From an uncultured virus (IMG/VR IMGVR_UViG_2534681803_000003) (lineage: Duplodnaviria > Heunggongvirae > Uroviricota > Caudoviricetes): 20,000 nt of DNA. The stretch is taken from positions 54,044-74,043 of IMG/VR virus record IMGVR_UViG_2534681803_000003. One strand, 5' to 3'. The notes below the pieces were generated by a model. The model made no database searches. It was not told the origin of the DNA and was given only the letters and a program-made list of their open reading frames with translations. Positions 7,267 to 14,682 of this stretch are shown here, in pieces (within the stretch, counting starts at the first letter, position 1; each line of letters begins with the position of its first letter). Made by a program: the position numbers and the translations under genes.

Positions 7267-7610
7267 CTCATAACCTCCAATAGCATCTCATTTTCAAAAA
7301 TATTTCCAACAATTTCAATAATATCGTCATTTTCACTTAGTAATTCAGTTACATTGCTAAAAGTTATATAAAAGGCTCCTTCTTTAAACTCGATAAAACT
7401 TACTTCTCTCGAATAACAATCTTGAACAATATCCCCTTCATAAATCTCCACACCGTGCACATCTTTAAATCCTGTGTATTGTAATAGTTTTACTTCATTG
7501 AAACTTTTATAACCTGTTGAAATCAAAATGTACCCACTATTAAAATCGATTTCGTCAATAATACTCATAACTTTTTTATCTTTATCCCAAGCTTTAAATT
7601 TCAACATCAT
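7263..7610 (-). CDS. YopX family protein
   Basis: KFKAWDK, LLQYTGFKD.HGVEIYEGDIV and EIVGNIFEN motifs. Confidence 0.92.
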   Translation of the reverse strand: MMLKFKAWDKDKKVMSIIDEIDFNSGYILISTGYKSFNEVKLLQYTGFKDVHGVEIYEGDIVQDCYSREVSFIEFKEGAFYITFSNVTELLSENDDIIEIVGNIFENEMLLEVMR

Positions 7611-8011
7611 ACTAGCAACTCCCCATCTTTCCAGATTAACGTCATAGTTAGGTCATCGTTTAAGATATAGAATGCTTTAGTAGGAAAAATATTGTCGTCT
7701 TCAAAACGTTCGTTCAAACTGATACCTTTGTGTAATGCGGATTTATAGACTCCTTCTTGAATCTCATATACCTCTAACAACCTATCAAACTTAGTCTCTT
7801 CCGTTACTTCTTTTTCAATATCAACTATGAAGGGGATATCAATTGGAATAAAACTTGACGTCGAACACTTATTTGTATTTGGATGAAAACGAACGAATCC
7901 ATCACTAAATCCTGTTGAAAAAAATATTTTTCCTTGTGATAGATCCGGATTTTCTCGCGCCCATTTAATTAATTCATCTAATCTCATTTCTTTTTTAACT
8001 TTGATTTTCAT
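7607..8011 (-). CDS. Hypothetical phage protein, 134 aa (paralog of 8014..8220)
   Basis: GAGGAG RBS; coupled to neighbours; N-terminus homologous to the upstream ORF. Confidence 0.85.
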   Translation of the reverse strand: MKIKVKKEMRLDELIKWARENPDLSQGKIFFSTGFSDGFVRFHPNTNKCSTSSFIPIDIPFIVDIEKEVTEETKFDRLLEVYEIQEGVYKSALHKGISLNERFEDDNIFPTKAFYILNDDLTMTLIWKDGELLV

Positions 8012-8013
8012 TG

Positions 8014-8220
8014 TTATATCTCCTCTTGAACAGTAAATTTATCGTTAATTGATACATATCCAGTCACATTACATAAGATGCTATCAACATGAAAAGTCAC
8101 AAAACAGTTGCGCTCAACATCATTTGAATAGAATCTTTTATTACCTGATAACTTGGGGTTATCCCAAGCCCATTGGATAAGTTCAGGTAAATTCATTTCT
8201 TTTTCAATTTTGATTTTCAT
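8014..8220 (-). CDS. Hypothetical phage protein, 68 aa
   Basis: Fills the gap in the operon; MKIKIEKEMNLPELIQWAWDNP. Confidence 0.82.
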   Translation of the reverse strand: MKIKIEKEMNLPELIQWAWDNPKLSGNKRFYSNDVERNCFVTFHVDSILCNVTGYVSINDKFTVQEEI

Positions 8221-8233
8221 TGTTTCCGCCCTT

Positions 8234-8476
8234 TTAAAATAAAGTTAGTTGCTTCTGTTCCTCATATTCCAAACCATGTTGCTTTATATATGTTTCAAGC
8301 TCTTCCGCTGTATCAAATGTCTTTTTCACACCTTGCCAACCTGGTACGATATGTCCGTGAAAGTAATAAGTGCCGTTTACTACATGGATATGTGCCACTC
8401 GTTCGTTATCCTGATACAGATATCTCTTAGATCCAAAGAATTGATTTAGGTATTCTTTACGCGCGCTATCTGTCAT
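8234..8476 (-). CDS. phiPVL orf51-like (SAV1978-type) protein, 80 aa, ending in QLTLF
   Basis: ATG 8476 with AAGGAG RBS 8 nt upstream; sequence matches a recalled conserved S. aureus phage protein. Confidence 0.85.
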   Translation of the reverse strand: MTDSARKEYLNQFFGSKRYLYQDNERVAHIHVVNGTYYFHGHIVPGWQGVKKTFDTAEELETYIKQHGLEYEEQKQLTLF

Positions 8477-8490
8477 GGTCATCACTCCTT

Positions 8491-8691
8491 TTAACAATTA
8501 GGCAGACCAAACGACATGCATTCGTCGTATAGCTCTTCATTACTTATGCTTGCCTTATAGTTTTCAATCACATTGCTAACTTCTTTATGACTCATTGCTT
8601 TAACTTGTTCGTCTGTATATTTTTCGCAGTCTTCTAATTCCAATTGCTCCTGTAATGACATTACGTAATCAACTTGTTTTTGCGTTGCCAT
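8491..8691 (-). CDS. Acidic hypothetical phage protein, 66 aa
   Basis: ATG 8691 with GGAGG RBS; MATQKQVDYVMSL. Confidence 0.82.
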   Translation of the reverse strand: MATQKQVDYVMSLQEQLELEDCEKYTDEQVKAMSHKEVSNVIENYKASISNEELYDECMSFGLPNC

Positions 8692-8693
8692 CG

Positions 8694-8951
8694 TTACCCC
8701 TCCCACAAATCAAATACTCTATCGACATAAAACTTCGCTTTTGCTAAATCCTCATGACCATTCTTTAACGGTGCTCTAGACAAGTATTTGATTGCATTAC
8801 CTATTGCGAATGCTAATTGTGGTGGGTACTGCGCCGTAACTTGTTCAATAAAATCTATAATTTCAATGTTGCCGTATGTGTAATGCGCCGGTTGCTTAAC
8901 ATTGTCTTGCGTTTTGTTCATATCTACTTTTCTGTTACTGATTATGCTCAT
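8694..8951 (-). CDS. DUF3310 domain protein
   Basis: DNVKQPAHY, GNAIKYLSRAPLKNGHEDLAKAKFY signature. Confidence 0.9.
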   Translation of the reverse strand: MSIISNRKVDMNKTQDNVKQPAHYTYGNIEIIDFIEQVTAQYPPQLAFAIGNAIKYLSRAPLKNGHEDLAKAKFYVDRVFDLWEG

Positions 8952-9758: not shown

Positions 9759-10163
9759 TCACTTCATTTCTCTTTTTCTTTTACGTCTGACTTTCACTAA
9801 GTCTTCATATGCTATCCATTCTTGACCTGTGTATTTAGGCGCTTTACATATCCACGTTAAATTCACATCTCTATACTGATATCTGAATATCTTCGCTTTG
9901 ATGTTGGCAACTTCAGTCGCCTTACCTTTAACGTCTATAACTTCAACCAGTTTCCCTTCCTTCCACAAAGAGAAATCGGCTATATACGTAATCGGTCTTT
10001 GTTTCCCGAATTTAGGTTGTAATTCAAATTTCGGTTGTATTTCGATACGATCATAGTTAGTGCCATTCATATTACTTTCTAAATATTGGTAATATTCGCA
10101 CTCTACTTTGCTATCAAATACAATTCCTTTGTACTCAACTTTCTTAGCGTTGTATTTACTCAT
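9759..10163 (-). CDS. DUF1064 PD-(D/E)xK nuclease (putative resolvase)
   Basis: SKYNAKK..FDSK.E..YY, QPKFEL, YIADF and IDVKG motifs; ATG 10163 with GAGG RBS. Confidence 0.9.
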   Translation of the reverse strand: MSKYNAKKVEYKGIVFDSKVECEYYQYLESNMNGTNYDRIEIQPKFELQPKFGKQRPITYIADFSLWKEGKLVEVIDVKGKATEVANIKAKIFRYQYRDVNLTWICKAPKYTGQEWIAYEDLVKVRRKRKREMK

Positions 10164-10173
10164 TGTGCCACCT

Positions 10174-10395
10174 CTAAATATCAAATATCGTTGCTTGTAA
10201 CCCTAGTTCTTGCTCATATAGAAGCCCGTGAGCGCCTTTGAATCGTTTTAGGTCACTATCAGTCATAATTTTCTTTTCGTCGCTGAAATGGGCTCCTGTG
10301 AGCGAATAAACTTCATTCTCATTCTCTTTATACTTGATGATCTTAATATCTTCCGTGCCATCTTCTCGGTATAAGTAATATTTTTCTTTCGGCAT
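10174..10395 (-). CDS. DUF3269 family protein, 73 aa, ending in QATIFDI
   Basis: MPKEKYYLYREDGTEDIK signature; AAGGAG RBS. Confidence 0.88.
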   Translation of the reverse strand: MPKEKYYLYREDGTEDIKIIKYKENENEVYSLTGAHFSDEKKIMTDSDLKRFKGAHGLLYEQELGLQATIFDI

Positions 10396-10397
10396 TT

Positions 10398-10613
10398 TTA
10401 ACACTCCTTAATGTGTGTTTTCTTCCAGTTGATTTCATTCATGATTTTCCTTTTAACTTTGTCATAATCATCAAAAGGCGATAACTCGTTATTGTCCAAC
10501 AATCTATTGACTGCCCAACCAGTTTCTATATAGACATTTGCTACAATCGGGTCGCTTTGCTTTGTCTCTTCATACATCGATTTCAATAAGCTTTTGAATT
10601 GCATGATGTTCAT
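10398..10613 (-). CDS. Conserved hypothetical phage protein downstream of helicase, 71 aa
   Basis: ATGA overlap with the helicase stop; GAGG RBS. Confidence 0.85.
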   Translation of the reverse strand: MNIMQFKSLLKSMYEETKQSDPIVANVYIETGWAVNRLLDNNELSPFDDYDKVKRKIMNEINWKKTHIKEC

Positions 10614-11851
10614 GTGAAAAACCTCTGCGTCTTCTTGTAATACTCAAATTCAATTATTCCAGTTTCTCCGTCTTTGTTTTTGGCTATGTTACATTCAACA
10701 ATAGATTTGCCTGTAATACCGTCATCTTCGTCACGGTTATAGTAATCATCACGGTAAAGTAGCATTGCTAAACTCGCATCTGCTTCTATTCCGCCTGATT
10801 CTTTCATGTCTGATAGCATTGGTCTTTTATCCTGTCTAGACTCGACACCACGATTCAGTTGTGAAAGTAGTACGATGATTGCGCCTGTCTCGTTAGCGAT
10901 TATCTTTAAGTCACGTGATATCTTTTCTACTGCTACACGTCTATCAACTTTCGCATTAGTATCCATCAGTTGGAGATAATCTATAAAAATAACTTGTTGC
11001 TCGTCTGAATGCCTCATTGCTTGTGCTCGGACATCTTGCGGTGTGATATTACTTTTATCAGAAATATCAATACCTAATTTCATGATTTTATCCATCGCAT
11101 TCGTTAACTTTGTTAAATCATCTGGCGTTAAGTTCCTGATTTCTTTTATTTTGGTTAACTCAATACCAGTAATTGTTGATAACATACGTTTCAATACTGA
11201 TGTGCCAGTTGTTTCAAGACTAAAGAAAGATGTTTTATATCCATTCCGTGCTATGTTCAGCATCATGTTTAATGCAAAACCTGTCTTACCCACTGAGGGA
11301 CGCGCTGCGATGACGATTAATTGCGACGGCTCCAATCCCCCTATTTTGTAATCCATGAGCTTATAACCCGTCTTAATTTGCTTCTTAGGGCTATCGCTGT
11401 ATAACTCTTCGACAAACTCCTCAACAAACTTCTTGGTTCCGTCTTCTTTTTTGTTAGTAATCGTTTTTAAATCCTTGAGTTCATCAATCAAGTTGTTAAA
11501 GTTTTGGTTCGTAGGTTGTTGTTTGAACTCAGTGACCAACTCATTCGCTTTGTTAATTTGATAACTTTCCAATAATTCTTGTTGGTAACGTTCAAAGAAG
11601 CCGTATCCAATGAAATCGGAGTTATAAAGTTTAGTTATAGTATCTGCATCTAAAAATTCTTTATCTTTAGTTGCTTTTAAATAGATTTCTTGATGATCTA
11701 TCTTTCCGGCGTCCATTACATAATTGAAAAAGGTTTTAAACTTTTCGTTAGTAAACATGTAATCTTTAACTCTTATCTTTTCTAGTACGTCCGGTTGTTT
11801 AAGTAGCGTAGCGATTATTGTGCTTTCAATTTCAAATTGTCCGTAATTCAT
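10610..11851 (-). CDS. dnaB: Phage DnaB-like replicative helicase
   Basis: Walker A AARPSVGKT, FSLE, IFIDYLQLM, LSQLNR, SGGIEADA and AKNKDG motifs. Confidence 0.96.
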   Translation of the reverse strand: MNYGQFEIESTIIATLLKQPDVLEKIRVKDYMFTNEKFKTFFNYVMDAGKIDHQEIYLKATKDKEFLDADTITKLYNSDFIGYGFFERYQQELLESYQINKANELVTEFKQQPTNQNFNNLIDELKDLKTITNKKEDGTKKFVEEFVEELYSDSPKKQIKTGYKLMDYKIGGLEPSQLIVIAARPSVGKTGFALNMMLNIARNGYKTSFFSLETTGTSVLKRMLSTITGIELTKIKEIRNLTPDDLTKLTNAMDKIMKLGIDISDKSNITPQDVRAQAMRHSDEQQVIFIDYLQLMDTNAKVDRRVAVEKISRDLKIIANETGAIIVLLSQLNRGVESRQDKRPMLSDMKESGGIEADASLAMLLYRDDYYNRDEDDGITGKSIVECNIAKNKDGETGIIEFEYYKKTQRFFT

Positions 11852-12204
11852 TCGTTATCGCCCCCAAATTCTGCCAACTTATTCATGAAGTTATCTAGCG
11901 CTATTTTTCTTTGTCTGACATATTCGGGGTCATTCTGCATTTTCCATTGGTGTGTGGCGGTTTCGTTATCTACTGGCTCGATAGATACTTTTTTAGGTGC
12001 CTTACGCATGATTGCTGGTAAGTTAGGCGGGTACGGGTTGTTACTGTTGATATATCCATCTACCGCTTTTACAGTTGGTTGATAATCTCCGTTTTGACTT
12101 AATACATCAATCCACATTTCTAACTTTGGTTTATCAAAATCGATGTTGTATACGTACCTAACTTTTTTAATAATTTCTAACGCTTGTGTTTTGCTCATCG
12201 GCAT
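11848..12204 (-). CDS. Helicase loader/inhibitor (SPP1 G39P-like)
   Basis: 118 aa between initiator and helicase; W..VL...DY and YPPNLPAI motifs. Confidence 0.85.
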   Translation of the reverse strand: MPMSKTQALEIIKKVRYVYNIDFDKPKLEMWIDVLSQNGDYQPTVKAVDGYINSNNPYPPNLPAIMRKAPKKVSIEPVDNETATHQWKMQNDPEYVRQRKIALDNFMNKLAEFGGDNE

Positions 12205-12959
12205 TAGTCATCACTCAATTCTTTTTCCATTTGTGCTATGACATCATCAGTAGTTTCTTTTTTAGAGTTACGAGGTTTCAATTTGTTTTCAGCACTTTCT
12301 TTATCTGAAACGCCTTCTTTATTCCAGTTCTTTAATACAGTTAGTAAGTAATTCAGACCTTTGTTGTTTTCTTTGCAGTAATCGGTAGCGACTTTTACTA
12401 TTTCGAACTGATCTTGCTTAAATGATTTAATTTCGTGTTCTAACTGTTCTGCTTTTAAAGGGTTTTGTATAATTTCTAAATTGGTACTAATATACTTAAA
12501 TGACTTTGAGACGTCGTCTGTCTCTCTATGTTTGTTAGTCTCTGTGTAGTCTATGGTATTGGTCGGGTCATTTTGTCCTCTTGCATCGTGCCATTTTGTC
12601 CTCATCGTCGGGCCATTTTGTCCCGATGGTCGTGCCACTAGTTTGTTTAATGTTTCATAATTGATTGAATACCATTTTGTACGGTCAAATCCAGCCTTGT
12701 TGTAGTTACCTACATGCAATAAATTTTGTTTTTCTAAACTCCCAAATGTCCTTTTTATAGTTCTCTCGCTCCAAAACGGAAATTGTTTTTGCCATTCTGG
12801 ATAAGAATTGAATATCCAAGTTTTACCATCGTATTTATGTTTTGAGTTGTTTAACCAATAATGAATTTGTTGCAATACTATTGCTTCGTTTAATCCTATT
12901 AATTCAGCTAATTTCGGTAATACTTGTATCGGATAGTCATCTATTAGTAACTTATTCAT
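12204..12959 (-). CDS. Replication initiator (N-terminal wHTH, C-terminal DnaD-like domain)
   Basis: IGLNEAIVLQQIHYW wHTH; YLLTVLKNW DnaD motif; internal iterons. Confidence 0.92.
   Translation of the reverse strand: MNKLLIDDYPIQVLPKLAELIGLNEAIVLQQIHYWLNNSKHKYDGKTWIFNSYPEWQKQFPFWSERTIKRTFGSLEKQNLLHVGNYNKAGFDRTKWYSINYETLNKLVARPSGQNGPTMRTKWHDARGQNDPTNTIDYTETNKHRETDDVSKSFKYISTNLEIIQNPLKAEQLEHEIKSFKQDQFEIVKVATDYCKENNKGLNYLLTVLKNWNKEGVSDKESAENKLKPRNSKKETTDDVIAQMEKELSDD
12562..12637. repeat. Iterons of phage replication origin within the initiator gene
   Basis: 19-bp direct repeats RTCGKGYCATTTTGTCC starting at 12562, 12585 and 12607, plus a partial copy at 12629 (22-23 bp period). Confidence 0.85.
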
Positions 12960-13626
12960 TTTTCTCTCCTTTCAGCATTTTGTTGAGCCTCTCATCAACT
13001 TTTATCCACGAGTCATGCAAGTGATATTTATCATCAAACGACTTAACGCCAATCGCATGTTGCTCGTTATGATGTTCGCGACATAACGCTAATACGTGTT
13101 TGTCGTAGTGATTCATCTTGTTTCTGTTCATGCCTCTACCTACTGCTTCGTAATGCGCTAGGTCAGCGTGAGGCTTTCCGCATATTACACAGTTACGGTT
13201 AACAGTTGACCAGTATAAGAATGATTTATCTTGTTTCAGTAGATTACTCGTTTTGTAGCTAAGTGGTATGTCATTGTAGAACGTCCAGTCAAGCGTTGCT
13301 TCAATGATTTGACTTGCTTGTGTTCTCGTACAATTACTTAGCGAAATACGTTCATCATAGCCGTAGTACGTTCTTACAAACTCGATGAACATATGTCTCA
13401 TATAGTCCATTGGTTGACCTGTATGTTCTTCTATGTCTTTGACAAGCGCGAATATTTTTCGACGTTGCTTGCCGGTAATTTGAAACGGATCTATAACGTT
13501 TACATCTACTTCTACATCAAACCCGTTATCAAGTAGTAATGTTTCTTTATTGCCTAATTCGACACCCGAGATGACAACTGTTGTTGTGCCGTCGTCTTGA
13601 GTGATATAACTAGTAATTTTTGGCAT
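12952..13626 (-). CDS. Putative HNH nuclease (DUF968 / HNHc_6)
   Basis: CVICG...DLAH...ALCREHHNEQH Zn/HNH motif. Confidence 0.88.
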   Translation of the reverse strand: MPKITSYITQDDGTTTVVISGVELGNKETLLLDNGFDVEVDVNVIDPFQITGKQRRKIFALVKDIEEHTGQPMDYMRHMFIEFVRTYYGYDERISLSNCTRTQASQIIEATLDWTFYNDIPLSYKTSNLLKQDKSFLYWSTVNRNCVICGKPHADLAHYEAVGRGMNRNKMNHYDKHVLALCREHHNEQHAIGVKSFDDKYHLHDSWIKVDERLNKMLKGEKNE

Positions 13627-13639
13627 TTAATCATTCCAA

Positions 13640-14059
13640 TCAGAACGGTAAGTCAGAAAAGTCTTCTTCGGTATTGTCGAACGGATTATTACCAGTTTGA
13701 GTTTGTCCGTTGTGTTGTTGGTTATTCTGTTTGTTGTTATTCTTCGGTTCTAAGAATTGAACGCTGTCCGCTACTACTTCTGTCACAAATACACGTCGCC
13801 CTTCTTTGTTATCGTAACTGCGTGTTTGTAATCGCCCGTCTACACCTGCCAGTGATCCTTTAGAAAGGTAGTTTTTAACGTTTTCAGCTTGTTTTTTGAA
13901 TACTACTACGTTTATAAAGTCTGCTTCACGCTCGCCTTGAGCATTTGTAAATGTTCTGTTTACTGCTAATGTGAATGTCCCTACATTTACGCCATTTGGC
14001 GTGCTTCTTAATTCTGGGTCTTTTGTTAATCGCCCTACTAATACTGTTCTGTTTAACAT
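13640..14059 (-). CDS. ssb: Single-stranded DNA-binding protein
   Basis: [20 protein letters not shown]-fold; acidic DLPF C-terminus. Confidence 0.97.
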
Positions 14060-14682
14060 TATTGTTTCTCCTCACTATCCAATTGTTTTAATCCCGCATC
14101 TAATTTTTGGTGTGCTTCTGCGATTTGTTTTTGACTCAATTTATTAATGTTAGAGATTTTTAGCCATCTCATTGTTTTATCTATAGTTGCATCTCGTCCC
14201 TTTTCTTGAGATAAACTCACGAACTGATTGATACGCTCTTCTAATTCTGTAATATCATTGTCACTTGCACTTGGAAGTTCCTCGCCGTTGTAGATATATA
14301 AACCTAAACCGTGTAAAGCCGAAGCTTTAACGAAACATCGTTTTTGCGCTTTGTTAATATCGAAAGTTGTTGCACTACCTTTAGCAAGCGATTTATTTCT
14401 AAAGTCCAATACTGGAAGCCACTCAGTCTCTGTACTATCTTTCACAGTCACAGATACCTGTACAAAATAGCCTTCTGGTGTAGCCAAATAAGGTACAAAA
14501 TAATTTTCTGTGTTAATATCTGGATGTGGAAACTCGTGTACTTTTACTGTGTAGTTTGGGTCAATCTTTTTCAGCTCTTGGTGTGCATATGACCATGCTA
14601 GATAAGTTAATCCATTTTTTTGTTCTGTATGATCATTCACGTTTTTACTGTTCAACTGTTCAAATAATGTTTGTTCAGTCAT
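14059..14682 (-). CDS. Sak (Rad52-like, DUF1071) single-strand annealing recombinase
   Basis: [19 protein letters not shown] and [24 protein letters not shown] motifs; adjacent to ssb. Not staphylokinase. Confidence 0.92.

Follow-up and report, generated by a model that had tools for sequence, protein, structure and literature searches.

The PF06194 protein, an 80-residue product of staphylococcal temperate phages, ends in the pentapeptide QLTLF, and judging from its sequence this tail is rather likely to be a genuine beta-clamp-binding motif that docks in the peptide pocket of the host clamp, DnaN. The protein is encoded in a 20,000-nucleotide stretch of viral DNA, hereafter the window, and the motif, its position at the extreme C-terminus, its conservation, a probable paralogue of the gene and the genomic context were observed directly. 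Few function-unknown genes of S. aureus prophages are as widespread as this one, and the label 'virulence associated' given to it is silent on mechanism. If the tail binds, nature would have supplied in it a ligand for the peptide pocket of the S. aureus clamp, an antibacterial target already studied.

The gene and its genomic context

The gene lies on the minus strand, with the following features:

8234..8476, minus strand: PF06194 coding sequence, a small early protein of 80 amino acids plus stop (open reading frame translation; Pfam; PHROG 258)
8237..8251, minus strand: QLTLF, the C-terminal pentapeptide, a putative beta-clamp-binding motif of the QLxLF class (translation; conservation)
8252..8269, minus strand: EYEEQK, an acidic flank that differs among homologues and forms the linker from the folded core to the motif (translation; alignment)
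8485..8491, minus strand: Shine-Dalgarno sequence AAAGGAG, 8 nt before the ATG at 8476 (read from the sequence)

Translation from the ATG at 8476 to the stop codon at 8234-8236 gives a protein whose C-terminus is ...HGLEYEEQKQLTLF. This bears out an earlier note on the same DNA, which had read the end of the protein as EEQKQLTLF. On the minus strand EEQK is encoded by 8252-8263 and QLTLF by 8237-8251. An alternative ATG at 8482 would yield an 82-aa form, the one called in most databases, and because codon 1 is AAA in 7 of 50 alleles the start of those alleles must lie upstream. The gene is tightly packed in its operon, with the upstream stop codon at 8491-8493 and the downstream start at 8220. 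The two ORFs that follow it (8014-8220 and 7607-8011, both on the minus strand) are paralogues across the whole 68-aa protein, with 43% identity (E 1e-16), and both begin MKIK[IV].KEM.L.ELI.WA..NP. One database protein, P0132 (117 aa), consists of the N-terminal half of PF06194 fused to a C-terminus that resembles that of the 134-aa ORF.

The window belongs to a temperate siphovirus of S. aureus and is contained in a 74-kb provirus record; over 6 kb its identity to P954 and StauST398-3 is ~94-95%. Its replication functions are grouped as follows:

9759..14682, minus strand: replication/recombination module, with Sak annealase, SSB, HNHc_6 nuclease, DnaD-like initiator, DnaB-type helicase, DUF3269 and DUF1064 (Pfam scan)

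Along the minus strand this order (Sak annealase, SSB, HNHc_6, DnaD-like, DnaB-type helicase, DUF3269, DUF1064) continues with DUF3113, PVL ORF50, DUF3310, a 66-aa ORF and PF06194, after which come the two small paralogous ORFs, YopX, DUF1024, dUTPase, RinA and terminase. The neighbourhood is repeated in other staphylococcal phages and prophages, where the PF06194 gene stands after DUF3310 and before dUTPase, between the replication and late-regulation modules, and in the second of two S. schweitzeri prophages that carry the gene it directly follows SSB and a DnaD-like initiator. A search of the 74-kb provirus for a clamp or a family A, B or C polymerase (PF00712, PF00476, PF07733, PF00136) found none, and the phage must therefore replicate with the polymerase and clamp of its host.

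Several neighbours deserve a word of their own. The DUF3310 ('SaV-like') gene at 8694-8951 on the minus strand lies two positions upstream of the PF06194 gene, with the 66-aa ORF in between, and in an S. kloosii locus (L011) DUF3310 is directly upstream; one table in the available part of PMC12323379 lists DUF3310 as a putative abortive-infection protein. The HNHc_6 nuclease (12952-13626, minus strand, 224 aa) is 62% identical to PhiNM1 Gp16 (E 3e-105), the C-terminal halves being nearly identical, and Gp16 has been described as a RecA-dependent nickase that halts host replication (PMC12817073). The phage SSB (13640-14059, minus strand) ends ...EEDFSDLPF, the usual acidic docking tip of SSB, and the SSB-like gene beside the second S. 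schweitzeri copy of PF06194 (L138:229-777) ends ...INDDDLPF.

A narrow family with a compact core

Over its full length the protein matches PF06194 (Phage_Orf51, phi PVL ORF51-like), with residues 1-80 on profile positions 1-80 of 80, an E value of 2e-58 and 194.8 bits against a cut-off of 27. The same Pfam scan, at E up to 1, returned besides this family just a sub-threshold SP_0191-like match. The protein also matches PHROG 258, labelled 'virulence associated', and its relatives are named 'SAV1978 family virulence-associated passenger protein' in the source database; in the partial text of authors who cite it, the virulence label is traced to a mutant screen. No match was returned by NCBIfam release 20, and a search of the ESM Atlas returned the protein's own family alone.

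By tblastn the family was found in 371 phage records, of which 370 are from Staphylococcus; 345 of the 371 are at least 90% identical to the query and 21 fall below 60%. Among 1.84 billion cluster representatives, 27 matches were obtained at E <=0.001, many of them fragments. On genome contigs the family occurs in the thousands, and a large share of S. aureus prophages carry the gene. By these searches PF06194 is a narrow, function-unknown family confined to staphylococcal siphoviruses. A 95%-identical copy of S. aureus type on an Allobacillus salarius scaffold (L009, 2298 bp) and the one 'Pseudomonas' phage record among the 371 seem to reflect mislabelled or contaminated entries and not a wider host range.

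In the AF2 model residues ~3-66 fold into a compact alpha/beta core with a helix at either end of four strands; a short acidic linker then leads to the C-terminal QLTLF. The pLDDT is 88-95 in the core and 69 in the last 10 residues, where residues 72-78 are drawn as a helix. The searches gave the core no convincing fold or family: Foldseek of the model against the PDB gave nothing at E <=0.001, the best match being YkuJ (2ffg; E 0.23, TM 0.52, rmsd 6.8); the best Z of a wide VIA-align run was 5.2, for B. subtilis YkuJ, below the noise guide of 7-8 given for that tool; and PDB sequences searched with a profile (E up to 1) yielded 6lnh_A alone, at chance level. A structure search of BFVD returned uncharacterised phage proteins plus DUF3269 and nothing else. 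No DNA-binding fold was recognisable in the fold searches, and the protein is mildly acidic.

Both family alignments share eleven invariant positions, which include K17, Y19, L20, H29, H31, G41 and H42, and the mean column identity is ~50%. A metal or catalytic site at the invariant H29, H31 and H42 was considered and set aside, as the AHxH pair is not kept in DUF3269 and no enzyme fold was matched.

Fit of the tail to clamp-binding peptides

In the available text of PMC11139829, natural clamp-binding motifs are given as Q-phi-x-[L/M]-[F/L] or Q-phi-x-[L/M]-x-[F/L], with QLxLF as the tightest class. Position 3 is free and position 2 tolerant, a Q-to-E change greatly lowers affinity, and in most cases the motif has acidic flanks or a free carboxylate at its end (PMC11139829, same text). 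EYEEQK-QLTLF-COOH agrees with every sequence criterion given in that part of the source. The suggestion of the earlier note that this is a sliding-clamp-type motif is thus upheld as regards its form: QLTLF fits the QLxLF class, stands at the extreme C-terminus and follows an acidic flank.

Among the 307 ORFs of at least 40 aa in the 74-kb provirus, the strict form Q[LI][STDN][LFIM]F has a single match, at the C-terminus of PF06194, and ~0.0014 occurrences are expected at the extreme C-termini of ~70 genes. Since a scan of many windows still yields chance matches, the case rests on conservation and not on this figure. A 60-aa ORF outside the window (G000 44913-45095, plus strand; probably no gene) ends ...NQTELFVPFD, a loose match to Qxx[LIMF][FL].

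In one genome of the S. aureus complex, that of S. schweitzeri, the DNA pattern for QL[ST][LF]F has 61 sites in all, as against 64 for the reversed control, and it was the in-frame count alone that proved informative. In frame, QL[ST][LF]F is found in six ORFs of at least 60 aa, namely a Y-family polymerase, two PF06194 proteins from two different prophages, a FeoB-like membrane protein, another membrane protein and a hydrophobic 71-aa ORF. Because the same pentapeptide occurs in the FeoB-like protein, a match by itself is insufficient. The motif is at the extreme C-terminus in two of the six, both of them PF06194; taking 2,600 proteins with 800,000 residues as assumed totals, 0.005 cases would be expected there and ~1.6 anywhere.

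The Y-family polymerase is of interest as a host protein with the same peptide. Its motif region in S. schweitzeri reads ...NEDERQLSLFEDEY..., and Q[LM][NSD]LF with acidic flanks was present in all 30 of the Y-family polymerase loci read (30 of 41 staphylococcal genomes with a match). QLxLF is therefore the form in which the genus itself uses the motif, and position 3 varies there as freely as in the phage proteins. The staphylococcal Y-family (UmuC-like) polymerase (...RQL[NSD]LF[IEV]DEY...) and the phage protein (...KQL[TSN]LF-stop) share one pentapeptide class. They differ in that the polymerase motif is internal, ~52 residues short of the C-terminus in an enzyme of 420 aa, whereas the phage motif is terminal in a protein of 80 aa that has no catalytic domain. 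In the S. warneri-labelled P0160, the terminal nine residues EDERQLSLF are identical to the corresponding residues of the S. schweitzeri polymerase (L094:736-1998, minus strand; ...NEDERQLSLFEDE...), an identity that may have arisen by mimicry, by capture of a host sequence or by coincidence.

Conservation of the tail

The query and its 120 nearest clusters make up 121 proteins, in which the C-terminal pentapeptide is QLTLF in 101, ELTLF in 6, QPTLF in 6, QLNLF in 5 and RLTLF in 1, with read-through or other ends in the remaining 2. The longer end EEQKQLTLF is found in 78 of 84 family ORFs that a script selected from 80 viral contig loci and genome loci; all of these are close relatives. Summed by hand over ~4,100 contigs, ELTLF occurs on ~143, which is ~3% of S. 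aureus contigs, and QPTLF on ~78. The S. aureus alleles are at least 90% identical to each other, and among 50 distinct DNA alleles codons 74-80 show zero synonymous changes and one Q76E. The last seven codons are thus near-invariant in DNA among close relatives, which makes them uninformative on selection for the peptide.

Further away, seven lineages at 47-55% identity to the query keep Q-L-[ST]-[LF]-F, and the four residues that precede it vary. C-termini of the following kinds occur:

S. aureus type (query): ...EEQKQLTLF-stop
Second S. schweitzeri prophage: ...EKAKQLSLF-stop
S. warneri-labelled cluster: ...EDERQLSLF-stop
S. intermedius: ...EESQQLTLFEV-stop
S. pseudintermedius: ...EESKQLSFFEV-stop and ...IESEQLTSFFEV-stop (a QLTSFFEV end)

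In the QLSFF of S. pseudintermedius position 4 is F, not L or M. Other relatives have no such tail. The phiSP119-2-type clade (cluster P0158, with 51 member sequences and 63 contigs) ends ...ELRFKE, S. intermedius NCTC 11048 ends IESTI, and the motif is absent from the most distant homologues, of S. kloosii and S. pettenkoferi type. It is missing from P0158/P0164/P0123, L010, L011, L012, P0145 and P0149, and a few of the forms without it are frameshifted or fused.

The earlier note had proposed that the clamp-binding idea be judged by conservation of the C-terminus among homologues, and the outcome is mostly in favour of the idea: the motif persists in the seven divergent lineages, although tail-less clades exist and Q76E circulates in S. 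aureus. Kept in some lineages and lost in others, the tail behaves as a module, in the manner of short linear motifs. It is also not required for folding, since the core is retained in the tail-less natural variants.

DUF3269 and a third branch

Further up the same module lies a second small protein with a tail of similar appearance:

10174..10395, minus strand: DUF3269 (PF11673) coding sequence, 73 aa plus stop, ending ...LGLQATIFDI-stop (Pfam scan)
10183..10197, minus strand: QATIF, clamp-binding-like motif in the DUF3269 protein, with D-I after it (translation; family count)

By BLASTP the C-terminal halves of the PF06194 and DUF3269 proteins align with their motifs in register (E 0.016), and by hhalign 62 columns align at 34% identity, again with the motifs aligned, at an E of 0.039 and a probability of just 1.3%. 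In BFVD the PF06194 model matches a 'DUF3269 family protein' with prob 1.00, TM 0.61/0.67 and 29% identity, and in a Pfam scan at E up to 1 the DUF3269 HMM did not match the PF06194 protein. The AF2 models of both proteins have the order strand-strand-strand-strand-helix-tail, with an extra N-terminal helix in PF06194, and in the DUF3269 model the pLDDT is ~60 in the tail against 70-88 in the core. Taken singly these scores are weak; combined with the shared position, size, fold order and tail they make common descent likely. DUF3269 is thus probably a distant paralogue of PF06194 rather than a member of that family.

The tail is a regular feature of DUF3269. From a sample of 107 proteins (106 matches and the query), 77 of at least 66 aa were counted as full-length, and 70 of these have Qxx[LIM]F within the last 12 residues (QATIF in 32, QANLF in 27, QADLF in 7, QASLF in 2, QTNLF in 1 and QETIF in 1). 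The tail columns are among the most conserved of the family. A further branch (P0277) appears in phiSP119-2, the phage whose PF06194 protein is tail-less: a 68-aa protein there, which belongs to no Pfam family, has the end QTDIFEFL, and its alignment to the DUF3269 profile has an E of 0.0034. The motif is thus kept in DUF3269 and in this third branch at ~26-34% identity.

DUF3269 and PF06194 are therefore alike in belonging to the same module, in size, in the order of strands and helices, and in a C-terminal Q-A-x-[IL]-F that aligns with QLTLF. They are unlike in that DUF3269 has neither the N-terminal helix nor the AHxH...GH histidines, and has alanine at position 2. In the consensus peptide QLDLF, alanine at position 2 lowers affinity ~40-fold (PMC11139829, available text). 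In S. schweitzeri a DinB-like polymerase (L093:1477-2547, plus strand), a Pol IV-like protein of 356 aa, ends ...KNMTIYDFI-stop, which resembles the DUF3269 tail ...LQATIFDI-stop.

A possible role for the tail

From these observations we infer binding to DnaN and all that would lie downstream of it. In the reading that we favour, the QLTLF tail would insert into the hydrophobic peptide pocket of DnaN, the one that polymerases and repair proteins use, and the PF06194 protein would be carried by host clamps loaded on DNA at phage forks, acting either as an adaptor or as a mild competitor. In the first role it would bring its globular domain, with any partner of that domain, to replicating phage DNA. 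In the second it would dislodge clients with a weaker hold on the clamp, among them the Y-family translesion polymerase, which carries RQL[NSD]LF in staphylococci. The phage brings an initiator and a helicase and no polymerase or clamp, so a lethal block of the clamp would harm the phage itself. This dependence, together with a non-toxic DUF3269 homologue, favours a rider, adaptor or mild competitor over a poison of the Gp168 kind. The earlier note raised two options, competition with PolC, DnaE or MutL and recruitment of the clamp to phage forks; docking or recruitment is the likelier, ahead of outright competition or poisoning.

An unlikely reading, though the best placed of the alternatives, is that the conserved tail docks on some other phage or host partner, or folds back as a short helix on its own beta-sheet, so that its likeness to a clamp motif is coincidental. 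The helix drawn at residues 72-78 at a middling pLDDT of ~69 is consistent with a tail that packs on the core. With ~50% mean column identity the conservation of Q, L and F alone is unexceptional, and the residue at position 4 falls outside the strict [L/M] both in S. pseudintermedius, where it is F, and in the DUF3269 protein of S. aureus, where it is I. Against this, natural variants retain the core after losing the tail; the best-binding clamp consensus is matched in three separate branches; position 3 varies as it does in the Y-family polymerase motif of the genus; and the gene lies within the replication module.

Could the protein instead be a potent clamp inhibitor that, like Twort Gp168 or G1 Gp240, shuts off the host, in this case by saturating the DnaN pocket and so stopping host replication? 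We regard this as improbable. QLxLF is the highest-affinity class of motif in the available text of PMC11139829, and overexpression of phage Mu MuC is lethal through its clamp-binding motifs (PMC12867686, in the part available). A growth-inhibition screen of PhiNM1 also leaves room for such an activity: 20 early ORFs were cloned, and PhiNM1 gp25 (L007:12911-13159), which is the PF06194 protein ending in QLTLF, is absent from the screen as given in the available text, though gp24 and gp26 were included (PMC11237401). In the same screen, growth was reduced by gp11 and gp16 only, and the DUF3269 homologue gp20, which ends QATIFDI and whose identity is supported by primer matches, was among the 20 ORFs and was not growth-inhibitory (PMC11237401, same part); gp numbers were matched to the GenBank order by means of Gp16 (ABF73046.1) and the primers for gp20, gp24 and gp26. 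Inhibition is further opposed by the need of the phage for the host clamp and polymerase in its own replication, by the presence of the gene in a large share of S. aureus prophages, and by the different mechanism and fold of Gp168 (PMC8565349, available text).

It is equally doubtful that the tail is functionless and its motif a chance match inherited by descent, for although conservation among S. aureus alleles at least 90% identical is uninformative, some clades have lost the tail, Q76E alleles circulate and a scan of very many windows yields chance C-terminal matches, the motif persists beside a variable linker in relatives at 47-55% identity, and at ~26-34% in DUF3269 and the third branch, and both extreme-C-terminal occurrences in S. 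schweitzeri are PF06194 where 0.005 were expected.

With clamp docking in mind, one may speculate on a wider scheme, which we put forward as an outside chance. According to this speculation, PF06194, DUF3269 and the 68-aa branch of phiSP119-2 form one superfamily of 'clamp riders' of 70-80 residues, whose most persistent shared feature is the C-terminal clamp-binding peptide, and which would load a phage domain on host clamps and so mark replicating phage DNA. Such marking might couple late, RinA-dependent transcription to replication, as Mu MuC does and as gp45 and gp33 couple the two processes in T4; alternatively, it might evict the host translesion polymerase, whose RQL[NSD]LF motif the tail would copy. 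What is new here is the probable link between two staphylococcal phage families; the hooking of clamps by mobile elements through a standard peptide is already known.

Comparison with known systems

Literature searches, with the original inhibitor screens outside their coverage, returned no function or clamp link for PF06194 or DUF3269 and no staphylococcal temperate-phage protein with a clamp-binding motif. Those original screens for staphylococcal phage inhibitors, reportedly by Liu et al. 2004 and Belley et al. 2006, may contain relevant negative data.

One comparison is with Twort Gp168 and G1 Gp240, which are likewise small staphylococcal phage proteins directed at S. aureus DnaN, for PF06194 a putative target. 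Gp168 binds DnaN as a dimer of two-helix hairpins lodged in the DNA channel, so that the peptide pocket stays unoccupied, and its authors found no sequence homologues (both from the available text of PMC8565349). The earlier note had placed our protein beside these two; the common target survives as a putative one, but the mechanism does not carry over, since Gp168 plugs the DNA channel and not the peptide pocket (PMC8565349, same text). Moreover, Gp168 and Gp240 come from myoviruses, and Gp168, as far as that text describes it, is built of two antiparallel helices that act in the channel, whereas PF06194 comes from temperate siphoviruses, has an alpha/beta model and would use the pocket. No Gp168-like chain appeared in the PDB profile search (E up to 1) or in the Foldseek or VIA lists, and it is by description that the two are set apart.

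Some transposases also bind the beta clamp, as stated in the available part of PMC4549789. They resemble PF06194 as mobile-element proteins that hook the host clamp, and differ from it as enzymes with an activity of their own (PMC4549789, same part).

A precedent is MuC of phage Mu. In the text available from PMC12867686, MuC binds the E. coli clamp through the near-consensus terminal motifs QHDLF and QPDLF and thereby activates late transcription. Like PF06194, MuC is a small protein of a phage that borrows the host replisome, and the pentapeptides at its termini are comparable with the putative clamp-binding one of PF06194. It differs in belonging to the Mor/C family of transcription factors, which bind DNA, and in that its clamp binding is demonstrated (PMC12867686, same text), whereas for PF06194, in a Gram-positive host, we infer binding; a Pfam scan at E up to 1 found no Mor/C family domain in the PF06194 protein. 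If our reading is true, PF06194 would gain a function, DUF3269 may act alike, and Mu MuC would have a counterpart in temperate phages of Gram-positive bacteria.
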